From IMG/VR virus record IMGVR_UViG_3300047561_001492, positions 6,103-70,102 of that record: a stretch of DNA of 64,000 nucleotides. The stretch is one strand, 5' to 3'. Positions 53,011-64,000 of this stretch are shown in pieces. The translations under genes were made by a program, and so were the position numbers. How positions within the stretch are numbered: position 1 is the first letter of the stretch; each line of letters starts with the position of its first letter. This DNA comes from a virus. Lineage: Duplodnaviria; Caudoviricetes. The notes under the pieces were generated by a model. That model did not search any database, was not told the DNA's origin, and saw only the letters and a list, made by a program, of their open reading frames with translations.

Positions 53011-54336
53011 TTATCTAGTTTCGCGCCACTGTATATTTGCGCGCGTATTACTACTTCCAGCGCCGATTCCAGTCGCAACAATAACAAATACGTTACTATC
53101 TGTGCTGTCCATGTTTTGGCTGATGTATCCGCGCTTTGCACTTGAGATCGAAGCTGTTGCGCTAGTAGAGCTAAATTGTCCAGCGCCCTGTCCACCAGCA
53201 ATAATAAATCCTACATTGATTAACGTTCCACTGGTAAAATTAACTGATGTCGCGCCTTCATTATACTGAACAACACTGTCATTATTTGCACTCGTCCAAG
53301 TACCGCCACTTATTGAACCAGTACTTGGAAGCCGCCAAAATTCATAACTTATGGCATTATCTGCTGTATAAACATTTAGAGAGTTTGCGCGAACAACGCT
53401 TCGGTTTGGTTTACCATAATATCCAGTTTTTAGTGATATAGCTATTAATGGAAGTTTGCCCGCTGTAGTAACACTTCTTGACACGGTGTTTACTGCCGCA
53501 AAATCTACACCAGCTTCGCTGTAACCGCCCTCACTGATTACTGTGGCGCAAATTTGATCAAAGCTGTCTGTTCCAGCGGCTAGTCCAGAGTAATTTCTAA
53601 TTTCACAACGTACTGGTAGGTTTGGATTGCTCCAATAAACACTAGGCTTATTATTACTATTATAAAATTCATGTGCAATTATAATGTCGCCGTTATGAAC
53701 AAACCCCGCCCTGACTCTTCCTACTCCCAGCCATTGAAAATCAGCTGCAAATAACTGTGTTTGTGTGGTATTTAAATTAAAAAGTGATGGACCAGTACCA
53801 TCCAATTTGTCAATATTCCAACTGTTTTGCGTTACGGTTTCATCGTATACAGATCCAGAAACATTACTTCTTAAAACTATTGCTTTTGTGCCGTCGCCGC
53901 TTTGTAAGAAAAATATTCCATTATTATCATCAAATAGGCCGATACGTTTATTTGTGCCAAGTCTAGATCCTGTAAAATTAAAACTTTGAAGAGTCATTTG
54001 ACTTTTTCCTGGCATGTAGTGGTGATACATGCGACTCTGGTGAATTGTAAAATCATTTGCGCCAGTTCCTACGGTTAAGATGGCTTTGGCTTTTGTAATA
54101 TCAAAAGTAATGGCAGAACTTGTTCCACTGGTTTTTGCTAATAATTCAGTCTCTTCTCCATACACATGACTGTAATCCGCGAGCGTAAATGGGGTTGACA
54201 TTCTTTGGCGGCCAAAGGCGTCGATAGCGGCGGGTTCAAATTGATTAGTAATTGCTACTGTGGGGTTTACTACATTAACATTTAAAGGAGAGTTATTACC
54301 CTCCTGTTCTACTTTCCCTATATTTGTGATAGGCAT
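53011..54336 (-). CDS. Probable virion structural protein (441 aa)
   Basis: Beta-rich, 'DAFGRQRMSTPFTLADYSH'; GTGTAA box at 54346-54351. Confidence 0.65.
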   Translation of the reverse strand: MPITNIGKVEQEGNNSPLNVNVVNPTVAITNQFEPAAIDAFGRQRMSTPFTLADYSHVYGEETELLAKTSGTSSAITFDITKAKAILTVGTGANDFTIHQSRMYHHYMPGKSQMTLQSFNFTGSRLGTNKRIGLFDDNNGIFFLQSGDGTKAIVLRSNVSGSVYDETVTQNSWNIDKLDGTGPSLFNLNTTQTQLFAADFQWLGVGRVRAGFVHNGDIIIAHEFYNSNNKPSVYWSNPNLPVRCEIRNYSGLAAGTDSFDQICATVISEGGYSEAGVDFAAVNTVSRSVTTAGKLPLIAISLKTGYYGKPNRSVVRANSLNVYTADNAISYEFWRLPSTGSISGGTWTSANNDSVVQYNEGATSVNFTSGTLINVGFIIAGGQGAGQFSSTSATASISSAKRGYISQNMDSTDSNVFVIVATGIGAGSSNTRANIQWRETR

Positions 54337-54420
54337 GTAATTTAATTACACCAGAAATCGATAATTAATTTATTTTTATTAATTTTTTATACTATTACAG
54401 TGTTATTCCGTATTATTATT

Positions 54421-54600
54421 ATGGAATTTATGATGCCCAAAACTTGCGAGTTGTACGTCCCAGTAAATGATAGTGCTGGCGCACTACTTCCGTGTGGAAA
54501 ACGTGCCACAGAAGTCATACGTCTTGGCGACGAAATGCGCCGTTACCTTTGCCGCGAGCATTATGTGGACTTATACCCAGAACAAGTAACAGAATACTAA
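54421..54600 (+). CDS. Small Cys/His protein (~59 aa)
   Basis: 'TCE...PCGK...LCREHY'; followed by a terminator. Confidence 0.5.
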   Translation: MEFMMPKTCELYVPVNDSAGALLPCGKRATEVIRLGDEMRRYLCREHYVDLYPEQVTEY

Positions 54601-54602
54601 AT

Positions 54603-54640
54603 AAAAAACCCCCGCTTATTTCGAAACGGGGGCTTTTATT
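54603..54640. terminator. Bidirectional intrinsic terminator
   Basis: A tract, CCCCCG/CGGGGG stem, T tract, between convergent ORFs. Confidence 0.75.
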
Positions 54641-54653
54641 GTTTTATTTTCTA

Positions 54654-54845
54654 TTAAAGGAAAATAGCCGTCAAAATGCTCTTGGAGCACAGCTTTAATA
54701 CACGAAAACTGCGTTTCAAGGAATTTCTGAGTCTACCACCTTTAATTGGACGGAAATTGTAGTACCCTACCATTCCGTACGGACAAAATACCAATCCCAT
54801 ATGGTTAGCCTTATAATCTTCTTTCATTAGAACACCTCCTTTCAT
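54654..54845 (-). CDS. Hypothetical protein (63 aa)
   Basis: ORF track; ATGTAA variant box at 54855-54860. Confidence 0.4.
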   Translation of the reverse strand: MKGGVLMKEDYKANHMGLVFCPYGMVGYYNFRPIKGGRLRNSLKRSFRVLKLCSKSILTAIFL

Positions 54846-55003
54846 TCATATATATTACATTCATTTCTACGGTTTAACAAGTTACGATTCTGTCTTTATC
54901 ATATCTACAGTTAAATTAAAAATATCCGTAAAAAAATACCCCACGGAATTTTTAGATTTGTTATTTTATTATTAGGGTGTTTTCTCTGTACGGTTTTATA
55001 AAA

Positions 55004-55250
55004 GGGTAGGGTGGGGCGTGGGCGTACGTATATAGGAATATAATCGTTTGTATATGTATGTATAGGAATATGTATATATGATATATCAATATATTTGATA
55101 TAAATATTTTTATATAGAATAGTACTAGTAATAAGAGCAATGGGTTAAATTAAATGAATTAATAGAAAAAATGAGGAGATTGAAAACGGTCCCCCCCGCC
55201 CCCGAAAATTCAAACAGGCGTTCGATTTTTTTCAAAAAGTGGGGGGAGGG
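55004..55250. other. Non-coding late/early boundary with G/C tracts
   Basis: GGGTAGGGTGGGGCGTGGG at 55004-55022; CCCCCCCGCCCCC near 55191-55203; GGGGGGAGGG at 55241-55250; set in very AT-rich DNA. Confidence 0.6.
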
Positions 55251-55323
55251 TATCAACAAAAATAATTTACTCAACCGCAAAGATTTTTCTGGTGTTTCTC
55301 ATAGGGTCTGATATACTGCTTAC

Positions 55324-55497
55324 ATGATTAAGAACAGATACACCACGAAAGAGATCGGTCAGCTAGGCGCGCCCCTGTTCGCAGGCGTGAACGTGCGAAT
55401 CTATCGCGTGGTGACCAGCAAGGGAACGCTGGAATTCAAATGCCATCGCGTCCCAATGACCGACCTGTGGAACATCAACAAAAAAAAGTTACGCTAA
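55324..55497 (+). CDS. Hypothetical early protein (57 aa, below ORF-track cutoff)
   Basis: MIKNRYTTKEIGQLGAPLFAGVNVRIYRV...; ATG 6 nt after a -10 box. Confidence 0.7.
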   Translation: MIKNRYTTKEIGQLGAPLFAGVNVRIYRVVTSKGTLEFKCHRVPMTDLWNINKKKLR

Positions 55498-55545
55498 TCG
55501 AAAAAAATCCCTTTACAATCCATTAACCTCTGATAAATTAAAAGC

Positions 55546-55809
55546 ATGAAAGACATCAATACATCCTTCACCCTCAACGGAACAAGCTACAACATCGACG
55601 CGGAATTCTACGTCGATAGCGACATGAACTTTGAGATCGTCACACTCAACCTGTGGAATAACGATACGGACGCGGAAGTCTTGAGCTTCAAGGCTCCTTC
55701 GATCCTTCACCCTGTTCCTATGGAGTCCCTGTTCACTGACAAGGAACTGCAAAAGAAGGTCGATGACGTTATCCTCAACGAGATCGACCAAGGGATGGCG
55801 GGCTGGTAA
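55546..55809 (+). CDS. Hypothetical acidic early protein (87 aa)
   Basis: ORF track; leaderless promoter. Confidence 0.75.
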   Translation: MKDINTSFTLNGTSYNIDAEFYVDSDMNFEIVTLNLWNNDTDAEVLSFKAPSILHPVPMESLFTDKELQKKVDDVILNEIDQGMAGW

Positions 55810-55824
55810 GGCCCTCATCCTATA

Positions 55825-55839
55825 GCAGGAAGCGTGCCA
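55825..55839 (-). promoter_or_regulatory. Sigma54-type -24/-12 site, antisense to 55546..55809
   Basis: Minus strand TGGCACG-CTTC-CTGC; overlaps the terminator hairpin. Confidence 0.55.
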
Positions 55840-55867
55840 AGTCTTGCACTTGGTGCGCTTTTTGTTT
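55830..55867 (+). terminator. Intrinsic terminator
   Basis: AAGCGTGCCAAGT-CTTGC-ACTTGGTGCGCTT plus T tract (13-bp stem with G.U pairs). Confidence 0.75.
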
Positions 55868-55936
55868 GCATGATATGATAAATGATTCTCATCTTCGACC
55901 CAAGCCAACGCCTTAAGCACCACGAACAATTGCTAT

Positions 55937-56013
55937 GTAACCCCTTAAATATCAAGCACTTACGCGGCCGCGCCCCACCGCGCGACGTAACCTGTTGAAA
56001 ATCAACGTGTTAT
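55937..56013. repeat. 77-bp double-palindrome element, copy A
   Basis: Palindromic arm + GC core + palindromic arm (GTAACCCCTTAAATATCAAGCACTTACG...CGTAACCTGTTGAAAATCAACGTGTTAT). Confidence 0.9.
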
Positions 56014-56025
56014 GGAATATGCTAG

Positions 56026-56040
56026 GCAAGCGGCGTGCCA
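56026..56040 (-). promoter_or_regulatory. Sigma54-type promoter facing copy A
   Basis: TGGCACG-CCGC-TTGC, a perfect consensus; 12 nt from the element end. Confidence 0.7.
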
Positions 56041-56124
56041 AGTCGCGTGTCAAGCGAAAAAAATAAAAAAATAATTTTTAAAAAAATCCCTTGCGTTTTT
56101 GTAGGTCTGTGGTATAGTAGAAGC

Positions 56125-56298
56125 ATGATTAAGAACACAACCATCACACCACTAATGAAAGAAATCGCTGCGGAGGTCGCGCTTGAAACGGCGCATCTCG
56201 AAGCGGCTCTCGCCCTCATGGGCGGTAGCACGGAAGAATCGGAAAATGCTTGGAGAGATTCCGAAGTTGAGCGCATCGAAAGATTCCGCGACTTCTAA
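56125..56298 (+). CDS. Hypothetical early protein (57 aa; start 56125, not 56035)
   Basis: MIKNTTITPLMKEIAAEVALE...; ATG 6 nt after TATAGT. Confidence 0.75.
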   Translation: MIKNTTITPLMKEIAAEVALETAHLEAALALMGGSTEESENAWRDSEVERIERFRDF

Positions 56299-56342
56299 AA
56301 TAATCCCTTGACCTTAACACTAAAACAAACCACAATAACACC

Positions 56343-56558
56343 ATGACAAAAAAACACCTCGAAGCCTTTGCAAAAATCTTGGGCAAACGTCTCGCTGAAA
56401 AACAAAATGCTCCCATTGCGGAATATGAAGTTGTTGAAGTCCTCGCGTTGGACTTTGCGAAATACTTTGCCGAACAGAATCCGCGTTTCGATGAGGATCG
56501 CTTTCTGGAAGCGGTTTTCTCTGGAACCCCTAACATCCCTGTTGGATCATATAAATAA
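56343..56558 (+). CDS. Hypothetical early protein (71 aa)
   Basis: 'MTKKHLEAFAKIL...NPRFDEDRFLEA', a pattern common in small phage proteins. Confidence 0.75.
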   Translation: MTKKHLEAFAKILGKRLAEKQNAPIAEYEVVEVLALDFAKYFAEQNPRFDEDRFLEAVFSGTPNIPVGSYK

Positions 56559-56559
56559 A

Positions 56560-56742
56560 ATGATCACTCCCAACATCCAAAAAGCCCTTGAATCAAATGG
56601 TGTGCGTTTCTTCGCAAAAGATTTTCTCATGGAAGGCATGAGGAAAGATTGCGTTGACGCTGTGCATGACGCGCACCTTGTCTATAAACTTTTGCACGAA
56701 CGCATGGAAAAAATCCTTGCACACGATGAAAAAAACATCTAA
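56560..56742 (+). CDS. Hypothetical early protein (60 aa; start 56560)
   Basis: ATG 1 nt after the upstream stop; 'KDCVDAVHDA'. Confidence 0.7.
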   Translation: MITPNIQKALESNGVRFFAKDFLMEGMRKDCVDAVHDAHLVYKLLHERMEKILAHDEKNI

Positions 56743-56754
56743 CCTAAACACTCA

Positions 56755-57003
56755 ATGAATAAATACACATACACCACGGCGGTTGCTCTGATGAGCAGCC
56801 TTCTCACCCTCCTCGTAACCAGCGCGGCGTTCTTCGTGTTCATCGTCCTGCCCTTTAATCGGGCGGCGGTCGAAGGCGGACACGCTTACTGGCGCGTGAC
56901 CAACCCCGCGACAGGCTCAACGTCTTTCACTTGGGCAAAGCCTAACGCGAACATCTTCGACGAGATCGAGCAGCCCTTGGTCGCACCCTTGGCCGCGAAG
57001 TAG
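56755..57003 (+). CDS. Membrane-anchored early protein (82 aa)
   Basis: N-terminal hydrophobic helix; followed by a terminator. Confidence 0.7.
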   Translation: MNKYTYTTAVALMSSLLTLLVTSAAFFVFIVLPFNRAAVEGGHAYWRVTNPATGSTSFTWAKPNANIFDEIEQPLVAPLAAK

Positions 57004-57020
57004 TCGCGCCACACTCTCAC

Positions 57021-57055
57021 GCTTGGCACGCCCCGCGCGTGTCAAGCTTTTTTTT
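57021..57055 (+). terminator. Intrinsic terminator upstream of copy B
   Basis: GCTTGGCACGC-CCCGC-GCGTGTCAAGC-T8. Confidence 0.85.
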
Positions 57056-57073
57056 GCAAAAATCTTTTGTGTT

Positions 57074-57150
57074 GTAAGTCGTTAAATATCAAGCACTTAC
57101 GCCGCCACGCCCCGCCGCGCGGCGTAAGTCGTTGAAAATGAGGGGCTTAG
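57074..57150. repeat. 77-bp element, copy B
   Basis: GTAAGTCGTTAAATATCAAGCACTTACG-CCGCCACGCCCCGCCGCGCGG-CGTAAGTCGTTGAAAATGAGGGGCTTAG. Confidence 0.9.
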
Positions 57151-57162
57151 GCAATCTGCCAC

Positions 57163-57177
57163 GCAGATGCCATGCCA
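57163..57177 (-). promoter_or_regulatory. Sigma54-type promoter facing copy B
   Basis: TGGCATG-GCAT-CTGC; 12 nt from the element end. Confidence 0.6.
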
Positions 57178-57261
57178 ACTCGCGTGTCAAGCACAAAAAA
57201 AATATTTTTTTAATCGCAAAAAATCTCTTGCATTTTTGCGCGGCTGTGGTAGAGTGTATGC

Positions 57262-57444
57262 ATGACAAAGAAATTCTACACCAGTGGAGAGATCATCGAG
57301 TTCGCCACGAAAAACAAGGCGGCTTGCACGTTCGCATCGCTTGCCACGCGCACGTTCACCTACACCAACAAGGGCGGGCTTTTCTGTCTAGTCCAGTTTG
57401 ATCGGGTTGAACCGCTGGTCTGGAAAAAGCGCGTGAGAAAATAA
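57262..57444 (+). CDS. Hypothetical early protein (60 aa)
   Basis: ORF track; leaderless promoter. Confidence 0.7.
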   Translation: MTKKFYTSGEIIEFATKNKAACTFASLATRTFTYTNKGGLFCLVQFDRVEPLVWKKRVRK

Positions 57445-57492
57445 ATAAAAAAATCCCTTGACTTTTACTGCATCTCTGCTATACTTTTAACA

Positions 57493-57687
57493 ATGAAAAC
57501 ATACATCATCACCTTCACCAAAACTGGGGAGCTTCCTGTCATCATCAACGTCGAAGCGGCAACGCTTCGCACGGCAATCAACAAATCTGTTCGCCGCATC
57601 GAACAGATGAAAAAAAATCTGGACAAGAAAGGCTACGACTACGGCCACTTGTGCGGATTGGCGATTCAGTCCACATTCACCATCTAA
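57493..57687 (+). CDS. Hypothetical early protein (64 aa)
   Basis: ORF track; TTGACT-16-TATACT promoter. Confidence 0.7.
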   Translation: MKTYIITFTKTGELPVIINVEAATLRTAINKSVRRIEQMKKNLDKKGYDYGHLCGLAIQSTFTI

Positions 57688-57691
57688 TAAC

Positions 57692-57877
57692 ATGAAAAAG
57701 AAAACACCACAAAAAAGCCAAATCTGGAAAGTTGGCACACGTTGCTTCCGCATCGTTCGCATCGAAGGCAACCAAGCCGTTGTCCGTCATCACGACATCT
57801 TCGGAAAATTCTTCCTCGACGACTTGCGCCCCGCAAGCGCGGAAGACATCTCCGCATACTTCAAGAAAAACTCTTGA
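57692..57877 (+). CDS. Small beta-barrel (SH3/KOW-like) early protein (61 aa)
   Basis: 'WKVGTRCFRIVRIEGNQAVV'; its TGA is part of the next -35 box TTGACC. Confidence 0.6.
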   Translation: MKKKTPQKSQIWKVGTRCFRIVRIEGNQAVVRHHDIFGKFFLDDLRPASAEDISAYFKKNS

Positions 57878-57912
57878 CCTTTCAACCCTAACACGCTAAC
57901 ATCATCACCACT

Positions 57913-58149
57913 ATGAACAACACACAAGACGGAATCATCAAAGCCCTCGAAACGCTCGTCCTGCACAGCAACGCGCTTAAGGATCACAAAGAAAACCAAA
58001 CCCTCATCGGCAAAACTCTTGAGTTTCACCAGAAGCATCTGGAAGTTCACGAGCAAAAGCTCGACCTCCTATGCCACAGCATCACCACGCTCGCGCATGA
58101 GTTGCTGAAGCTCAAAGACACTAACAAAATCACCTTCGGAGTCAACTAA
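57913..58149 (+). CDS. Coiled-coil early protein (78 aa)
   Basis: Heptad pattern rich in His/Leu. Confidence 0.7.
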   Translation: MNNTQDGIIKALETLVLHSNALKDHKENQTLIGKTLEFHQKHLEVHEQKLDLLCHSITTLAHELLKLKDTNKITFGVN

Positions 58150-58150
58150 C

Positions 58151-58303
58151 ATGAGCAGAATTATAATGACCATAGACACGCGCCCCTTCGCGCGCGAGAT
58201 CGAACGTAGCGTTCGCAAGACCGCTTGCCGTCCATCATTCGCCCTGCGCGTGAAGAACGCCTACACGCGCAAGGCAAAACACAAACACGCACAAGACTAC
58301 TAA
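58151..58303 (+). CDS. Basic 50-aa protein with ArfA-like C-terminus
   Basis: MSRIIMTIDTRPFAREIERSVRKTACRPSFALRVKNAYTRKAKHKHAQDY; read by eye, below track cutoff. Confidence 0.6.
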   Translation: MSRIIMTIDTRPFAREIERSVRKTACRPSFALRVKNAYTRKAKHKHAQDY

Positions 58304-58365
58304 TGATCCCCATCATAGCCTGTGCGCTTTTCGTTTTCTATACTATCACACGAACCAAAATATAA
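58303..58365 (+). CDS. Possible 20-aa hydrophobic peptide
   Basis: MIPIIACALFVFYTITRTKI; TAATG coupling to the upstream stop. Confidence 0.4.
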   Translation: MIPIIACALFVFYTITRTKI

Positions 58366-58383
58366 TTTATAAAAATATAATCT

Positions 58384-58551
58384 ATGAACATAATCCAACG
58401 CACAACGGAAGTTATACTCAACGTAGTTGCCCTCTACACTCCCAAGCGCAAGCCCTCGTTGCTCGCGCAGAATATAACTTGGTTTAACTCTGCGGGTTGG
58501 GTCACGCGGCTTCACGCGAACGGAGATCTTGACTACTATCTTGTGAAGTAA
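58384..58551 (+). CDS. Hypothetical early protein (55 aa)
   Basis: MNIIQRTTEVILNVVALY...DYYLVK; its TAA lies in the left arm of copy C. Confidence 0.6.
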   Translation: MNIIQRTTEVILNVVALYTPKRKPSLLAQNITWFNSAGWVTRLHANGDLDYYLVK

Positions 58552-58624
58552 AGCGTTGAATATCAAGCACTTACGCCGCCGCGCCCCGCCGCTCGGCGTA
58601 AGTCGTTGAAAATCAGCACTTTAC
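58548..58624. repeat. 77-bp element, copy C
   Basis: GTAAAGCGTTGAATATCAAGCACTTACG-CCGCCGCGCCCCGCCGCTCGG-CGTAAGTCGTTGAAAATCAGCACTTTAC. Confidence 0.9.
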
Positions 58625-58636
58625 GCAACATGCTAC

Positions 58637-58651
58637 GCAGGTGCCGTGCCA
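58637..58651 (-). promoter_or_regulatory. Sigma54-type promoter facing copy C
   Basis: TGGCACG-GCAC-CTGC; 12 nt from the element end. Confidence 0.65.
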
Positions 58652-58753
58652 ACTTTGGATTCAAACGCGCGTTTGAAAAATCATCAACAAAAATACTTTC
58701 TAAAAATCGAAAAAAAAGCGTGCGTCTCGCGTGTGGCGTGCTATACTTCTCTC

Positions 58754-59005
58754 ATGGTTAATACAGACAACACCGCAAACACACAGCAACTCGACAACGT
58801 GATGCACACCGCGCGTGTCGCGCTCATCATGCGCATACGCCAAGGAATAAAAAATCGGCATGGGTTCCCCGCCTACTCTCGCAAGGGAATCCGTGAAGAC
58901 CTCCGCGCCTATCGCGTTCTCTCGAACGTGCTCGAAGTCAACGCGACCTTCTACACCTTCGACGAGTCGCAACTCCACAAGGTGAAAAAAGCCCTTGCCA
59001 AGTAA
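58754..59005 (+). CDS. Hypothetical early protein (83 aa; start 58754)
   Basis: MVNTDNTANTQQLDNVMH...; ATG 6 nt after TATACT. Confidence 0.7.
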   Translation: MVNTDNTANTQQLDNVMHTARVALIMRIRQGIKNRHGFPAYSRKGIREDLRAYRVLSNVLEVNATFYTFDESQLHKVKKALAK

Positions 59006-59030
59006 GGCGCAATCTGAAAAAATTCACACG

Positions 59031-59705
59031 ATGAAACTACTCGCAACAAACACCAAACTAGAAAAAAGCGTTGGCTACGGCTGGCGCACACTCGGACTCT
59101 CGCTCTCTCCCGCTGGCAAGAGTGGCAAACAATTCTGCCCGCATCGCTCGGCGGGATGCGAAGCCGCTTGCCTTGACACTTCAGGCATGGGCGTTTTTCA
59201 AATGGTGCAGGACGCACGGCTCGCCAAATCGCGTTACTTCATCGACAAGCGCGACGATTTTCTCGCACAGCTAAACCGCGAAATGCACAACGCGGAAAAA
59301 CTTTCCACGCGCACGAAAATCCCCGTGGCCGTTCGTCTGAACGTGCTTGCGGATCTTCCGTGGCACAAGCTAGTTGATATGGAAAAATTTTCCAACGTGC
59401 AGTTTTATGATTACACGCCGAACCTCGACCGCATGATGGAATTTTTGCGCGGCGAGTTGCCGAAAAATTATCATCTTACCTTCTCGCGCAAGGAGGACAA
59501 TCAACACAAGGTTCATGCCGTTCTCGCCGCTGGCGGCAACGTGGCCGTGGCGTTCAATCGTTTGCCAGAAACCTATCTCGGCTTGCCAGTCATCGACGGC
59601 GATAAAAGCGACTTGCGTTTTCTCGACGCGCAAAACGTGATCGTCGGACTCAAAGCCAAGGGCAAAGGCAAACACGATACCTCTGGCTTCGTGGTTCAAA
59701 TATAA
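59031..59705 (+). CDS. Gp88-like protein (mycobacteriophage gene 88 family) with Cx6Cx3C motif (224 aa; start 59031)
   Basis: 'TNTKLEKS...LSLSPA...CPHRSAGCEAACL...VRLNVLADLPW...QFYDYT...YHLTFS...GGNVAV...DGDKSDLRFLD...GLKAKG'. Confidence 0.75.
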   Translation: MKLLATNTKLEKSVGYGWRTLGLSLSPAGKSGKQFCPHRSAGCEAACLDTSGMGVFQMVQDARLAKSRYFIDKRDDFLAQLNREMHNAEKLSTRTKIPVAVRLNVLADLPWHKLVDMEKFSNVQFYDYTPNLDRMMEFLRGELPKNYHLTFSRKEDNQHKVHAVLAAGGNVAVAFNRLPETYLGLPVIDGDKSDLRFLDAQNVIVGLKAKGKGKHDTSGFVVQI

Positions 59706-59718
59706 ATAGAATGATGCC

Positions 59719-59796
59719 GTGACCATAATTCCAATTATACTCTGCGCCGTTCTCGTCTGCTTCATAATCTCCAACAACTCCAACCCTAAAAAATAA
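59719..59796 (+). CDS. Possible 25-aa hydrophobic peptide (GTG start)
   Basis: (M)TIIPIILCAVLVCFIISNNSNPKK; resembles 58303..58365. Confidence 0.35.
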   Translation: MTIIPIILCAVLVCFIISNNSNPKK

Positions 59797-59797
59797 T

Positions 59798-59950
59798 ATG
59801 ACACACTACGCAAAAAAAATCCTGTTCCGACTAGCGCAAACTTGTAAACGCCGTGCGGACTATGCTTGCCGCCGCAACAACATAGGGCTTGCAAAAAAAT
59901 ATCTTTTCGCATGGGAAAAATTGCTTGACACGCGCGACAAACTTCGGTGA
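59798..59950 (+). CDS. Basic hypothetical protein (50 aa)
   Basis: MTHYAKKILFRLAQTCKRRADYAC...LLDTRDKLR; stop is 1 nt before copy D. Confidence 0.55.
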   Translation: MTHYAKKILFRLAQTCKRRADYACRRNNIGLAKKYLFAWEKLLDTRDKLR

Positions 59951-59951
59951 C

Positions 59952-60028
59952 ATAAAGCGTTGAAAATCAACGACTTACGGCGGCGCGCCCCGCCGCGCGG
60001 CGTAAGTGCTTGAAAATCAACAGCTTAT
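59952..60028. repeat. 77-bp element, copy D
   Basis: ATAAAGCGTTGAAAATCAACGACTTACG-GCGGCGCGCCCCGCCGCGCGG-CGTAAGTGCTTGAAAATCAACAGCTTAT. Confidence 0.9.
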
Positions 60029-60040
60029 AAAACATGCCTC

Positions 60041-60055
60041 GCAGGTGCCATGCCA
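60041..60055 (-). promoter_or_regulatory. Sigma54-type promoter facing copy D
   Basis: TGGCATG-GCAC-CTGC; 12 nt from the element end. Confidence 0.6.
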
Positions 60056-60129
60056 AGATTGTTGTCAAGCGAAAAATAAAAATAAAAAAAATCCCTTGCA
60101 CCTATCACAATTTTTGCTATTCTTCTCCT

Positions 60130-60264
60130 ATGCAAGCGAACTCCCTAATTATGGACGACTTCACGGCAAACATCCAAAGCGACGAGTTCGCGGCGGAATA
60201 CGAGGCATGGATCACCGAGCAGGAGCAGAACTACTGGCGCGAGATCGAGGCGCGGGGAAATTAA
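60130..60264 (+). CDS. Acidic 44-aa early protein (start 60130)
   Basis: MQANSLIMDDFTANIQSDEFAAEYEAWITEQEQNYWREIEARGN; leaderless promoter. Confidence 0.65.
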   Translation: MQANSLIMDDFTANIQSDEFAAEYEAWITEQEQNYWREIEARGN

Positions 60265-60267
60265 TTT

Positions 60268-60462
60268 ATGACAAACAACACCACGAAATGCCCCAAGTGC
60301 GGGGGCAACGCAACACGCACCTACGAGCCACCCTACCAAGAATACGCTGGAGCCAGCGTGCAGGGCGGCTACTACTACGTCGAGTGCTCGTGCGGTCACG
60401 AGGGCCACGAAAAGGCCGACCTCTCCGACTACGACTACATGGAGAACACGCGCGGCTGGTAG
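60268..60462 (+). CDS. Zinc-ribbon early protein (64 aa)
   Basis: 'KCPKCGG...YVECSCGH'. Confidence 0.7.
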   Translation: MTNNTTKCPKCGGNATRTYEPPYQEYAGASVQGGYYYVECSCGHEGHEKADLSDYDYMENTRGW

Positions 60463-60477
60463 CGCACACACTCAAAC

Positions 60478-60512
60478 GCTTGGCACGCCATATGCGTGTC
60501 AAGCTTTTTTTT
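60478..60512 (+). terminator. Intrinsic terminator upstream of copy E
   Basis: GCTTGGCACGC-CATAT-GCGTGTCAAGC-T8; same arms as 57021-57055. Confidence 0.85.
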
Positions 60513-60530
60513 GCAAAAATCTTATGTTAC

Positions 60531-60644
60531 GTAAAGCGTTGGAAATCAACAACTTACGCCGCCACGCCCCGCCGACCCGCGTAAGTCCTTGAATATCAGC
60601 ACTTTGCAAAAAATTGGTGCAAGTCGTTGAAAATCAACATTTTA
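60531..60644. repeat. 77-bp element, copy E (60531-60607), plus a third arm (60619-60644)
   Basis: GTAAAGCGTTGGAAATCAACAACTTACG-core-CGTAAGTCCTTGAATATCAGCACTTTGC; extra GCAAGTCGTTGAAAATCAACATTTAT. Confidence 0.9.
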
Positions 60645-60664
60645 TAGAAAATGGGGGTATATTA

Positions 60665-60753
60665 CTATTTGCTATTTGTCTATTTCCTATTTAGCAATTT
60701 CCTATTTCACTATTTCATATTTCACTATTTAGCAATTTGATAGTTCGCTATTT
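60665..60753. repeat. Tandem CTATTT-type microrepeat array (~12 units, period 7-8 nt)
   Basis: ctatttg ctatttgt ctatttc ctatttag caatttc ctatttca ctatttca tatttca ctatttag caatttga ... ctattt. Confidence 0.9.
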
Positions 60754-60878
60754 TAACAAAAATTTTATATTTGTCGAAATATTGGGGAACTTTCGACAGG
60801 TTTTCCCAACGTGTCGATAGCTTCGACATGAAAAAAGTCCTTGCTATTTCTACTATTTGGGCTATACTAGATGAACAT

Positions 60879-60952
60879 GGGGGTGAAGCATTAAAGTGAT
60901 GCAACGGACTTTTAATCCGTAGAAGAGGGCGCGTTACCCTCCATCCCCACCA
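60879..60952 (+). tRNA. trnK: tRNA-Lys(UUU), non-canonical T-loop and position 8
   Basis: GGGGGTG/CATCCCC acceptor, GCAT/ATGC D-stem, ACGGA/TCCGT stem with CT-TTT-AA loop, GAGGG/CCCTC T-stem, discriminator A, encoded CCA; own promoter TTGCTA-16-TATACT. Confidence 0.9.
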
Positions 60953-61018
60953 AAACTTTCTGAAAAATAATCAAAAAAACCCATTGACTAGACCATCAAA
61001 AAGACCTATTCTATATAA

Positions 61019-61282
61019 ATGAAAGCACTACTAAAGAAGATCAAACTGGCAATCGCAGACTCCAAGTTCGGACAACTCTCCAATCCTGTGTATAGGTTGA
61101 AGTATCGTCCTTACACGGACGAGGGAAACAAGGAGGTTTATGACTACCTCGTTTCCAGACCCTTCGACGGGTGGGTGAATGGATTCACCGCCTATGCTTT
61201 CGGCAAAGGCGTTCGTAGGTTCCGCTTCGACGAGATCGTTGATCGTGAAGTAGTTCAGATCTTTGGAAAATCTGTGGCGTAA
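61019..61282 (+). CDS. WYL-like domain protein (87 aa)
   Basis: 'RLKYRPY...FTAYAFGKGVRRFRFDEI' resembles the WYL 'R.FR.DRI' end; TAA sits in a GTGGCG/CGCCAC hairpin loop. Confidence 0.55.
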   Translation: MKALLKKIKLAIADSKFGQLSNPVYRLKYRPYTDEGNKEVYDYLVSRPFDGWVNGFTAYAFGKGVRRFRFDEIVDREVVQIFGKSVA

Positions 61283-61297
61283 CGCCACGCAATATAA

Positions 61298-61922
61298 TCT
61301 GCTCGACAATCAATATCGGAAACAAAAGAAGCAAAGTTAAACGGATCTTTGCGGTGGTCGCGTAAGCGAAAATCAAACATCCGCCGAAGCAGATAACAAT
61401 TTTTAGTTCTTTTACATTTTAGATTTTGCTGTGGTCATTGAGGGGTTTGCAACTGCGGATAGACTGAGAGGTTTACCAAAGGCAAATAGCGACCTGAGCC
61501 ACAGCACAATTTTTTCCGAACGTTTCGATGCGCGTCTTCATGGCGCGGGAACAAACGCAGAGGAAAAACCTCTCCCAAGCTCTGGCGGATACATCTCCGT
61601 TCAACTTGTGAGCTAATTGCCGAAAGGCGATTTGATGTCGGTGCCGCCAGAAGGCACGGAGTCAACGGCAGGGAGTTCTGGCCTCCCTGTCACTACTTTT
61701 ATAATTTAGAGGTTTGCATGGCGCATTGATCATGCAAAGCAAATCAGAAAGTTGTGTTTTCTGAGCCTCTATCTTTTGCATAGAAAATGCGCAATAGTTC
61801 AAAGCAAACTTTAACTATTCTGCAAAAACTATGCGCAATACTTTTGGAGCAACCACAAACCCTCTGGTATTAGGCGGCTGGAAGAAATTGGAAAGTTCTC
61901 TGGCGTAAGTCCTGCTCCGAAA
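61298..61922 (+). ncRNA. Candidate large structured RNA (or cluster of structured RNAs), family unknown
   Basis: No credible ORF; ~6 consecutive stem-closed domains, GNRA loops, complementary loop pairs (see findings). Strand inferred from neighbours and GNRA orientation. Confidence 0.65.
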
Positions 61923-61939
61923 TCTTTTAAAATAAAATT

Positions 61940-62161
61940 ATGAATGACATACAAAAATACTGCCTAATCGCTTTGGGCCTAATCGTCTTCGTCTCTCTTA
62001 TCGGAGGCGGCGGCGGCAAACGAACGGACGGAGTCTATGAGAGTGCCATGAGTAAACTTGACTCTGGTCGTCCTCTTAATGATAGGGAACAGCAAAGAAT
62101 TTCTGATATAGTTAACTGGTGTTCTGCACACAATAGGCCGATTAGAGAGTGCAATCACTAA
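61940..62161 (+). CDS. Membrane-anchored/secreted small protein (73 aa)
   Basis: Hydrophobic N-terminus, Gly5 linker, C-terminal C-x2-H...C; TAA lies in the left arm of copy F. Confidence 0.7.
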   Translation: MNDIQKYCLIALGLIVFVSLIGGGGGKRTDGVYESAMSKLDSGRPLNDREQQRISDIVNWCSAHNRPIRECNH

Positions 62162-62234
62162 AGCCTTATAAATCAACCACTTACGGCAGCGCGCCCGCCC
62201 CGCGCGCGCAACCCCTTGATATTCAAGCACTTAC
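62158..62234. repeat. 77-bp element, copy F
   Basis: CTAAAGCCTTATAAATCAACCACTTACG-GCAGCGCGCCCGCCCCGCGCG-CGCAACCCCTTGATATTCAAGCACTTAC. Confidence 0.85.
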
Positions 62235-62246
62235 GCAAAACGTGGA

Positions 62247-62261
62247 GCAGGAATCGTGCCA
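62247..62261 (-). promoter_or_regulatory. Sigma54-type promoter facing copy F
   Basis: TGGCACG-ATTC-CTGC; 12 nt from the element end. Confidence 0.65.
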
Positions 62262-62344
62262 ACCTTTCGGAACGCCCAAAAATAAAAAAAGATTTTTATC
62301 AAAGAATACCTTGCATAGCTTGGGGGTTCTGATATTCTTCCTAC

Positions 62345-62842
62345 ATGACAAGAACGGCAGACATCATCATCAGCACATACGGAAACGGCATTGCCGTTGG
62401 ACTCAAGGGAACACGCGAGCAGATCGAACGTGAGTTCAATCGCTTCTTCAACTGGGGAGCAGCAGCAGCAAACGTGAGTTTCATGCGTTCCAACGCTGAT
62501 TCCGAAATGCAGCATGGTGAACTCGGAGATTCATACCTTCACGAAATCGGACAAAACTTTTCATACTTTCTCTCCACGCATGAGGCTATGATTAAAGCCA
62601 TTGCCGCCGAAACAATCACGCGCTGGCAGGACTCACCTGTAAGCGAGCAATACAAGGCCAAGCCGCGCACTAACAAGAAGGCGCAAGGTAACAAGTTCAT
62701 GGCCGAAGCTCTCGCCGCAGCAACCGCAGAATACGAAGCCATGCCACGCGAAAACTTTATGCTGTTCGGTAAAACGCCCACGCACATTTACCAGCAACTC
62801 GACGGCGGTGCGCCGTCATGGATCAAGGAGACTGAAGACTAA
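62345..62842 (+). CDS. Hypothetical early protein (165 aa)
   Basis: ORF track; TTGCAT-16-TATTCT leaderless promoter. Confidence 0.8.
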   Translation: MTRTADIIISTYGNGIAVGLKGTREQIEREFNRFFNWGAAAANVSFMRSNADSEMQHGELGDSYLHEIGQNFSYFLSTHEAMIKAIAAETITRWQDSPVSEQYKAKPRTNKKAQGNKFMAEALAAATAEYEAMPRENFMLFGKTPTHIYQQLDGGAPSWIKETED

Positions 62843-62847
62843 AATTT

Positions 62848-63387
62848 ATGAAAACAACCACGCAAACCACACACACTAAAAATGACTTCTGCTATAATAT
62901 GCGCCGCTGGCCAGTAGAAAAAGAATCAAAGCCGCTTTTGAAAGAAGTCGTGCTTGACGCGATTGATGCGGCAAGATGCGATCTTGAGAATGGCATAGGG
63001 ATTGATGGATCGTATCTGTCAGACGATAGTAGTCTTAACGATTTTTCAGACGAGAAGAAGATCGTTCTACTTAACAACTTGGAGAACGCAATTAAAGGCA
63101 AACCTTTCTCTGGCATTTCATCCTCAACCGATCTCATTCTTGAAGAATTGTTGCATAGCGTTGTGACATCTCATGTCATAATTACATTTGACATGGAGGA
63201 TGATTCGGAGATGAAAAAGTATTGCAATCAAATCAGAAAAATATACTCACTCCATCACGACGATAACATTGCTGACAATCAAACTATAATCGACTGGTTT
63301 AGTGACGAATTATGGTGGGACTTGGATTGGCAAATGTTTCAGATCGACACTAAAAAATACGCACAGGAATATCTCAACAACATCTAA
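62848..63387 (+). CDS. Hypothetical acidic protein (179 aa)
   Basis: ORF track. Confidence 0.7.
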   Translation: MKTTTQTTHTKNDFCYNMRRWPVEKESKPLLKEVVLDAIDAARCDLENGIGIDGSYLSDDSSLNDFSDEKKIVLLNNLENAIKGKPFSGISSSTDLILEELLHSVVTSHVIITFDMEDDSEMKKYCNQIRKIYSLHHDDNIADNQTIIDWFSDELWWDLDWQMFQIDTKKYAQEYLNNI

Positions 63388-63390
63388 TTT

Positions 63391-63576
63391 ATGAAACCAC
63401 GCAAATATAAAATAAAAAAGGTGTCTTTTACTATGATGAGGAACGGCCCTACAAAAATTGGGATAAAAATATATTCACGCCGTAAAAAGAAAATTAAAAA
63501 AGCGCAAACAGCATGGCCCCTGCCTTGGACACCATTACCCCATAAAAAAATCCTACTTGCTTACGATATAGCCTAA
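63391..63576 (+). CDS. Basic hypothetical protein (61 aa)
   Basis: ORF track; TAA lies in the left arm of copy G. Confidence 0.5.
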   Translation: MKPRKYKIKKVSFTMMRNGPTKIGIKIYSRRKKKIKKAQTAWPLPWTPLPHKKILLAYDIA

Positions 63577-63649
63577 ACCATTCAAAATCAAGGACTTAAG
63601 GCGGCGCGCCCCGCCGCGCGGCCTAAGTTGTTGATATTCAAGCACTTGT
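63573..63649. repeat. 77-bp element, copy G
   Basis: CTAAACCATTCAAAATCAAGGACTTAAG-GCGGCGCGCCCCGCCGCGCGG-CCTAAGTTGTTGATATTCAAGCACTTGT; no sigma54 site on its right. Confidence 0.85.
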
Positions 63650-63702
63650 AAATAATAAAAATACTTGTTGACCCCAAATTCAAATGCGGCTATTCTTACA
63701 GG

Positions 63703-64000
63703 ATGATCACCACACAACTACCACTACCCATGCGCTGCTCCTCCGATGCTCTCATCCAACCAGAGCTTGAACTCAAGCCCACGCGCAATCCTGCTTACGC
63801 GCACGTTGAAGAATTTTTCGACGGCATACGTTGCGAGGACGTTGCTCGCTATACGGATTACTGGTCGAGTGTTGCGCCTTCAACCGAAGAGGATCACTTT
63901 TTGCGTTGGGTATTCGCCTTCATGTCTGTCCATACTTCATGGAAGTCAAACGTGAACGGATACAACGCGCTGAAGAATTGGCGCGAGTGGGAGAACGATC
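63703..64000 (+). CDS. Truncated ORF, weak resemblance to Ogg/HhH DNA glycosylase N-terminus
   Basis: MITTQLPLPM...EEDHFLRWVFAFMSVHTSWKSNVNGYNAL...; open to the window end; ATG 6 nt after TATTCT. Confidence 0.55.
   Translation, partial: MITTQLPLPMRCSSDALIQPELELKPTRNPAYAHVEEFFDGIRCEDVARYTDYWSSVAPSTEEDHFLRWVFAFMSVHTSWKSNVNGYNALKNWREWEND

Follow-up and report, generated by a model that had tools for sequence, protein, structure and literature searches.

The viral contig IMGVR_UViG_3300047561_001492 is a single sequence of 70,102 bp, rated about 47% complete, and its right-hand 64 kb (hereafter the window) contains a repeated 77-bp element in the early region of the phage. Bases 1-54336 of the window have a GC content of about 30% and carry the late genes on the minus strand, including those for a 2,205-amino-acid (aa) tape measure protein and the large terminase. 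From about 54.5 kb onward, the GC content is 45-50% and small open reading frames (ORFs) lie on the plus strand. The jump in GC content between 54300 and 55100 coincides with the strand switch from late to early genes, and it is not an assembly chimera since related phages align across the junction. The element-bearing blocks of these relatives likewise have a GC content of 36-48%. Megablast against cultured phages gave no nucleotide match, TerL is only about 24% identical to that of cultured phages, and a protein atlas look-up for host inference returned no usable taxa. The phage belongs to a clade of uncultured large siphovirus-like phages, a lineage unrelated to the T4-type phages.

A repeat search found one repeat family in the window, with 7 copies of 77-79 nt, all on the plus strand, spaced 579-1627 bp apart, and confined to the high-GC early block (55938-63650). 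A preliminary description of this DNA had claimed seven 77-bp copies, each built of an arm, a GC core, and a second arm; both the count and the layout hold, with the true starts one base after those claimed. The copies, designated c1 to c7, occupy positions 55938-56014, 57075-57151, 58549-58625, 59953-60029, 60532-60608, 62159-62235, and 63574-63650. A fuzzy scan of the whole 70,102-bp contig found no copy beyond these. The skeleton pattern of the element gave 16 matches versus 0.54 expected in shuffles, and a 25-bp arm pattern gave 15 matches versus 1.04 expected, accounting for the 14 element arms and one solitary extra arm (60620-60644, plus strand) that adjoins c5. Right after c5 and this solitary arm, positions 60657-60750 hold about ten CTATTT-type words with a periodicity of 7-8 and 15 nt, an array that resembles iterons or operators and has about 76% identity in a related contig (L001, see below).

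The element is closely tied to the ends of genes. At three of the window copies the upstream gene ends inside the element, the first TAA of c3, c6, and c7 being the stop codon of ORFs 58384-58551, 61940-62161, and 63391-63576, respectively, and ORF 59798-59950 has its stop codon 5 nt upstream of c4. Across the wider family described below, 41 of 96 elements have an ORF of 40 aa or more on the same strand that ends at offset 0, -3, -5, or -6 relative to the left edge. Intrinsic terminators lie upstream of c2 (57021-57055) and c5 (60478-60512). These 2 were called by a terminator scan at 57021 and 60478; the scan made no call at the elements, which carry no U-tract.

Searching IMG/VR with the invariant skeleton returned 18 stretches, and a differently anchored skeleton added only two contigs. 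From about 20 viral contigs, 96 elements were extracted, of which 82 are distinct, and every one is exactly 77 bp long. Where individual members are named below, L001, L003, L012, L014, L016, and L017 denote loci of related IMG/VR contigs and W the window phage. The exact spacing is kept in about 90 copies, and 81 distinct members align over 77 columns without a gap. As had been proposed from the window alone, the positions of TAA, TTGA, TCAA, and TTA are constant in this alignment while the bases between them vary. Three of the relatives, 166-178 kb in length, are rated as complete, and two of these have direct terminal repeats. Each of the three carries 12-15 elements, all inside one block of about 15 kb, and in these genomes the arms never occur outside the element blocks and are always paired 50 bp apart.

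A scan of 185,579 prokaryote genomes gave 16 matches, approximately the number expected by chance for 18 specified bases. True elements in this set were found only in three contigs of 1.2-1.6 kb, which are probably mis-binned phage fragments. Since the prokaryote genomes yielded only these three tiny contigs, the element is phage-specific and gives no clue to the host. The family had not been recognized in the preliminary description, and we likewise found no description of the element in Rfam or in the literature searched; a cmscan of positions 54000-64000 against Rfam at E values up to 1 gave one tRNA-like match and one chance match, neither of them on an element.

Along the 77 bp, the conserved blocks are, in order, TAA, TTGA, ATCAA, ACTTACG, a polar GC-rich core centered on CGCGCCCC, CGTAAGT, TTGA, TCAA, and TTA. 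The arms are imperfect palindromes as had been described, but the idealized perfect palindrome then drawn for them is absent from the window. Two other ways of reading this anatomy were rejected. A CRISPR-like mini-array of repeat, spacer, and repeat is ruled out by the middle being the most conserved part while the arms vary, and an 8-bp palindromic protein site in the core (GGCGCGCC) was abandoned, as most cores in the window itself do not contain it.

One long hairpin can be formed by five of the seven window copies (z-scores from -2.7 to -6.5), but c1 and c6 do not form it. The element might accordingly be a hairpin at the 3′ end of the sense mRNA that terminates or attenuates transcription, blocks decay, or is a target of RNase III, like the promoter-early stem-loop (PeSL) of other phages, whose stem-loops terminate transcription (PMC2839356). 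The location directly after stop codons and the GC-rich center agree with such a role. To score covariation, the ungapped alignment of 81 distinct copies was compared with 500 column shuffles. In the long hairpin, 65.2% of cells are paired versus 68.8 ± 0.5 in the shuffles, with 500 of 500 shuffles scoring at least as high, and in 499-500 of 500 shuffles none of the five measures exceeds the shuffled level. A three-hairpin fold fares no differently (73.1 paired versus 74.0 shuffled). Our own counts of compensatory changes found none in the long-hairpin register, the intra-arm registers, or four GC-core registers. The 3′ part of the core varies freely while its 5′ side shows no corresponding changes, and in the long hairpin mismatches recur systematically at positions 19/57 and 20/56.

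The absence of compensatory changes in all registers tried rules out a conserved hairpin or cruciform: the element is conserved as sequence blocks at fixed spacing and not as base pairs. The covarying structure considered in the preliminary description thus does not survive, with pairing and covariation below shuffled expectation for both candidate folds, and of its suggestion that the arms pair internally or with each other there remains a long hairpin that 5 of 7 copies can form, with no sign of selection for it. A hairpin acting in the sense mRNA also has to contend with the missing U-tract, with the separate canonical terminators that precede c2 and c5 and lie upstream of c1, with the failure of c1 and c6 to form it, with the systematic mismatches and the uncompensated variants in the 3′ half of the core, and with the elements, described next, in which the core is inverted relative to the genes. 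We regard this explanation as very unlikely.

The two inner half-sites of the element follow a rule of their own. The dinucleotides at positions 19-20 and 56-57 are (CG,GC) in 22 elements and (GC,CG) in 21, compared with 1 case of (CG,CG) and none of (GC,GC), and both heterotypic orders are present in nearly every genome (mutual information 0.61). Nearly every element therefore joins two different inner half-sites, which is the opposite of what pairing would produce. The GC core has an orientation as well, and in 13 of 96 elements, including L003:4536-4612, it is inverted relative to the arms and the genes. Most of these core-inverted elements lack the opposite-strand box discussed below; in two it is found in the mirror-image position, on the side nearer the promoter.

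When the copies are aligned with their flanks, the element proves to be the center of an intergenic boundary module of about 190 bp between small early-gene cassettes. The order within the module is upstream stop codon, element, 11 nt, an opposite-strand sigma54-type box, an A-tract, a sigma70-like extended -10, and ATG. A conserved GTGCCAA word is shared to the right of the element, and an intrinsic terminator is present upstream only sometimes. The preliminary description had treated the 77 bp as the complete unit, and so it missed this longer module and the inward-facing box at its fixed distance.

The plus-strand promoters of the module are predicted at 56091-56127 after c1 (a -35-like element with an A-tract upstream, a TG-extended -10 at 56113-56118, then 6 nt and the ATG at 56125), 57228-57264 after c2 (-10 at 57250-57255, ATG 57262), 58720-58756 after c3 (-10 at 58742-58747, ATG 58754), 60096-60132 after c4 (-10 at 60118-60123, ATG 60130), 62311-62347 after c6 (-10 at 62333-62338, ATG 62345), and 63668-63705 after c7 (-35 at 63668-63673, -10 at 63691-63696, ATG 63703). 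A -10 hexamer of the form TAnnnT, mostly TG-extended, stands exactly 6 nt before the ATG at 55324, 55546, 56125, 57262, 58754, 60130, 62345, and 63703. This distance leads us to predict leaderless mRNAs, and the same prediction holds in the relatives. No Shine-Dalgarno sites were found at early or late genes apart from about three late genes, and downstream genes within a cassette start 4-8 nt past the previous stop. The distance between element and sigma70-like promoter varies between 42 and 242 nt (mode 110) and shows no clear register that would indicate helical phasing. A minus-strand sigma70 promoter built on the TTGACA-like words right of the element was also considered and rejected, there being no -10 at a usable spacing.

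Read on the minus strand, the GTGCCAA word is part of the pattern TGGCAY-N5-YTGC, which resembles the -24/-12 sequence recognized by sigma54. This pattern occurs 30 times in 479 kb of sequence searched on both strands, and 24 of these occurrences lie exactly 11 nt from the right edge of an element and are aimed inward. If A is allowed at -12, the box is found in 45 of 83 flanks, exactly 11 nt from the arm edge and pointing inward. The 45 boxes, selected on TGGCA, are all preceded by T, are followed by G in 42 cases, and all have TG at -14/-13, while the spacer is variable; at -12, 23 have C and 22 have A. Six canonical boxes are present in the window versus about 0.5 expected, and all of them lie on the minus strand, from 55.8 to 62.3 kb. 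They fit a -24 GG and -12 GC in a 12-nt register within YTGGCACG-N4-TTGCW, and the 45 family flanks carry TTGGCAYG.

Five of the seven window copies carry the box, and in all five the predicted start falls on the last base of the element. The c1 box, a full consensus match, lies at 56026-56040 with its predicted start at 56014, and those at c2, c3, c4, and c6 lie at 57163-57177 (predicted start 57151), 58637-58651 (58625), 60041-60055 (60029), and 62247-62261 (62235); c5 and c7 have none. The sixth, a solitary box without an element, lies at 55825-55839 inside the stem of a plus-strand terminator, and has a predicted start (55813) 4 nt beyond the stop codon that ends ORF 55546-55809. Every predicted box in the window is thus aimed antisense at the 3′ end of a cassette. 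The solitary box and the terminator stem overlap at 55825-55858, and the intrinsic terminators at 55832-55858, 57021-57047, and 60478-60504 reuse stem words (GTGCCAAG / CTTGGCAC) of the -24 part of the sigma54-type box.

This arrangement invites an explanation in which the element serves mainly as the transcribed 5′ leader of antisense RNAs, or as a functional RNA within them. Host sigma54 RNA polymerase would start these transcripts at the element's edge, and they would silence the preceding cassette by antisense pairing or polymerase collision, with the arms as operators or RNA features. The fixed 11 nt, which puts the predicted start on the element's last base at five copies of the window and in 45 of the 83 flanks of the family, speaks for it, as does the antisense aim of all six canonical window boxes, including the solitary one that has no element. 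There is also precedent for dependence on host sigma54: such use is rare among phages but documented for YuA (Ceyssens 2008, as cited in PMC5053324). We found no activator, upstream enhancer dyads, phage sigma54, or enhancer-binding protein, and on the minus strand no terminator or ORF follows. About 45% of elements lack the box yet keep the same sequence, half of the boxes lack the -12 C, and RNA structure covariation is missing on either strand. On balance an antisense leader seems unlikely.

In its right half, each arm follows the consensus for IHF binding, WATCAA-N4-TTR. An exact match is present on the top strand of the left arm in 58 of 82 elements, among them all seven window copies, and at least one arm matches exactly in 74 of 82. 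The consensus gave 117 matches versus 0 for a reversed-pattern control, and 139 sites lie inside elements versus 30 in 251 kb outside them. A conserved A at position 14 that does not fit the palindrome is likewise explained by the IHF-type reading. Protein-binding sites had been among the functions suggested for the repeat, and the block-wise conservation without compensatory changes, together with these consensus matches, supports that suggestion indirectly, although no binder was found. Searches for a phage-encoded partner covered sigma54, an enhancer-binding ATPase, HU/IHF, tyrosine and serine recombinases, and Y1 transposase, and none was found. Pfam returned no significant match for 20 small early ORFs, and a further set matched only GP88, DUF6734, and, weakly, a glycosyltransferase.

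Comparison of related phages shows that gene content changes at the elements. Between positions 55866 and 55945 of W, L003 has about 1.1 kb of extra sequence bounded by two elements, of which the left one has an inverted core and no box. The window copy c1 is a chimera of these two: its unusual left arm is that of the left L003 element, and its core and right arm are those of the right one. In a second event, L001, L012, and L017 have one extra unit of cassette plus element (about 1.5 kb) relative to L014 and L016. The ends of long high-scoring segment pairs fall within 25 bp of elements 51 times versus 19.4 expected, clustering at the two edges and near position 15. A recombinase elsewhere in the genome had been a possibility raised by the preliminary description, but the three complete relatives encode no tyrosine recombinase, serine recombinase, or Y1 transposase (PF00589, PF00239, PF01797), and therefore the exchange is best attributed to general homologous recombination. 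Cassette shuffling by this route has been proposed for the PeSLs of T4-type phages (PMC2839356; PMC4122927). Of the recombination and replication sites suggested earlier, homologous exchange at the repeats is thus seen in the c1 chimera and the second indel, site-specific recombination is not indicated, and nothing points to replication.

Terminal inverted arms, repetition, and a position at indel junctions are also what one would see if the element had no function of its own, having either been carried along with duplicated promoter modules or spread in the early region as a selfish miniature inverted repeat of the MITE/REP kind or as a recombinase site. The REP/BIME (RIP) sequences of enterobacteria and the Correia elements of Neisseria are short and imperfectly palindromic, are located at transcription-unit 3′ ends in combination with an IHF site, are repeated, and alternate between subtypes. 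The element described here shares these features, with IHF-type motifs at gene 3′ ends. REP/BIME and Correia elements are, however, chromosomal, occur in hundreds of copies, and are mobilized by RAYT or other transposases, whereas the 77-bp element is found only in phages, occupies one position per cassette, has no transposase that we could find, and carries its IHF-type motif in the arms and not in the center.

A selfish or functionless repeat is further at odds with the exact length and block-wise conservation, including the heterotypic rule, over about 90 diverged copies, with the constant placement and polarity, and with the element's absence from the rest of the phage genomes and from bacterial chromosomes. 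Neither target-site duplications nor insertion polymorphisms of the bare element were seen, and the enzymes named above are missing from the complete relatives. An attC- or res-like recombination site or a MITE/REP was rejected for want of a cognate enzyme in the three complete relatives, of covariation, and of chromosomal copies. We consider an element without its own function the least probable of the explanations examined.

The early region has other features as well. GP88 (PF17338, E 2e-38), encoded at 59031-59705 on the plus strand and conserved in most relatives, is the sole early ORF with a Pfam match in the window. The tRNA-like match lies at 60879-60949 on the plus strand (47.4 bits, E 8e-8); it is not called by ARAGORN and has its own sigma70-like promoter at 60841-60868. 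The stretch 61300-61930 on the plus strand contains few ORFs, and its center (61570-61699) is 92-94% identical in five relatives, which is above the identity of neighboring genes. It is a candidate structured non-coding RNA, without an Rfam match.

The closest parallel to the boundary module in overall plan is the PeSL of T4-type phages, which runs from stop codon to stem-loop, AT-tract, and sigma70 promoter and mediates shuffling (Arbiol et al. 2010, PMC2839356; Comeau et al. 2014, PMC4122927). Both are repeated intergenic modules of about 100-200 bp that span the distance between the stop codon upstream and the start codon that follows, both combine a GC-rich palindromic part with an AT-rich tract and a sigma70-like early promoter, and both flank small ORFan genes and have indel junctions between related phages in the repeats. 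The differences are nonetheless substantial. PeSLs occur in the hyperplastic regions of T4-like myoviruses and carry a Shine-Dalgarno site at their 3′ end, while the module described here belongs to a siphovirus-like lineage with a 2,205-aa tape measure protein and is predicted to yield leaderless mRNAs. Its fixed 77-bp double-dyad element has a polar core, shows no sign of pairing selection, and lacks a U-tract, and it is accompanied by an inward sigma54-type box at a fixed distance and by the IHF-type consensus in its arms. The module is an analog of PeSL in plan and not a member of the PeSL family.

The box can likewise be set beside bacterial sigma54 (-24/-12) promoters. It agrees with them in the form TGGCAY-G-N4-YTGC, the exact GG-to-GC spacing, the invariant T before it, the fixed key positions with a variable spacer, and the nearby IHF consensus sites. 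It departs from them in that neither an enhancer-binding protein nor an upstream enhancer was found, the IHF-type sites are on the downstream side of the predicted start, A stands at -12 in half of the family boxes, and the boxes face back into gene 3′ ends.

The reading that we favor, though with somewhat less than even confidence, is that the 77-bp unit is a DNA-level, protein-bound boundary and control module of the early cassettes. The anatomy, the fixed spacing, the absence of selection for pairing, the motif matches, and the indel junctions are seen in the sequences themselves. As to which proteins bind and what the complex does, we infer that the element would act as double-stranded DNA under an architectural or regulatory protein. 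The arms may be bound and bent by a host IHF-like bender or a phage early protein, and the polar core would be read by a second specificity. The resulting nucleoprotein block would cover +1 to +77 of the backward-facing sigma54-type site and could gate or block that site, whether it supports antisense initiation or holds a parked sigma54 holoenzyme, and it may insulate one cassette from the next. In published work, the Escherichia coli sigma54 holoenzyme was bound but inactive at many sites, some of them antisense and some with a non-GC -12, such as one that has TTGA there (PMC4591121). The modules are also the places where cassettes are gained and lost among related phages, which would be a consequence of their being repeated.

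Several observations weigh against a protein-bound boundary module. Half of the family boxes have A and not C at -12, and 45% of the elements lack any box. The complete relatives encode no sigma54, no recognizable enhancer-binding ATPase (their PF00158 matches are RuvB-like or generic AAA+), and no HU/IHF (PF00216), and the Pfam search of the 20 small early ORFs brought up no binding protein. IHF-type sites downstream of a predicted sigma54 start are not the classical arrangement, and the heterotypic half-site rule is not explained by the model. A role as RNA is physically possible, as 5 of 7 window copies fold into the long hairpin. The enrichment of breakpoints at elements, finally, is partly expected, since gene ends terminate homology anyway.

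A more specific version of this model, which we consider speculative and rather improbable, is that each early cassette ends in a host-factor switch. A backward sigma54 holoenzyme site would be gated by IHF-type bends and the polar core, and its release by a host or phage activator would lead to antisense transcription or head-on collision that shuts the cassettes off. If true, this would be a new kind of early-to-middle switch and a second, mechanistically different case of a phage dependent on host sigma54.

The early regions of large uncultured phages are mostly unreadable, consisting of ORFan genes without known control logic, and here the control DNA is unusually legible. The module has a fixed geometry in which the sigma70-type leaderless promoter, the backward sigma54-type box, the IHF-type arms, and the polar core can each be tested by standard assays, and any model of binding will have to accommodate the heterotypic half-site rule (43 to 1), a clean constraint that has no explanation. 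If the sigma54 and IHF readings are true, they would provide a host clue for the clade, whose host must then carry both factors, and would point to an undescribed way of insulating or switching early cassettes. Whatever the mechanism, the PeSL idea extends beyond the T4-like phages, with repeated regulatory modules as exchange points for accessory early genes.

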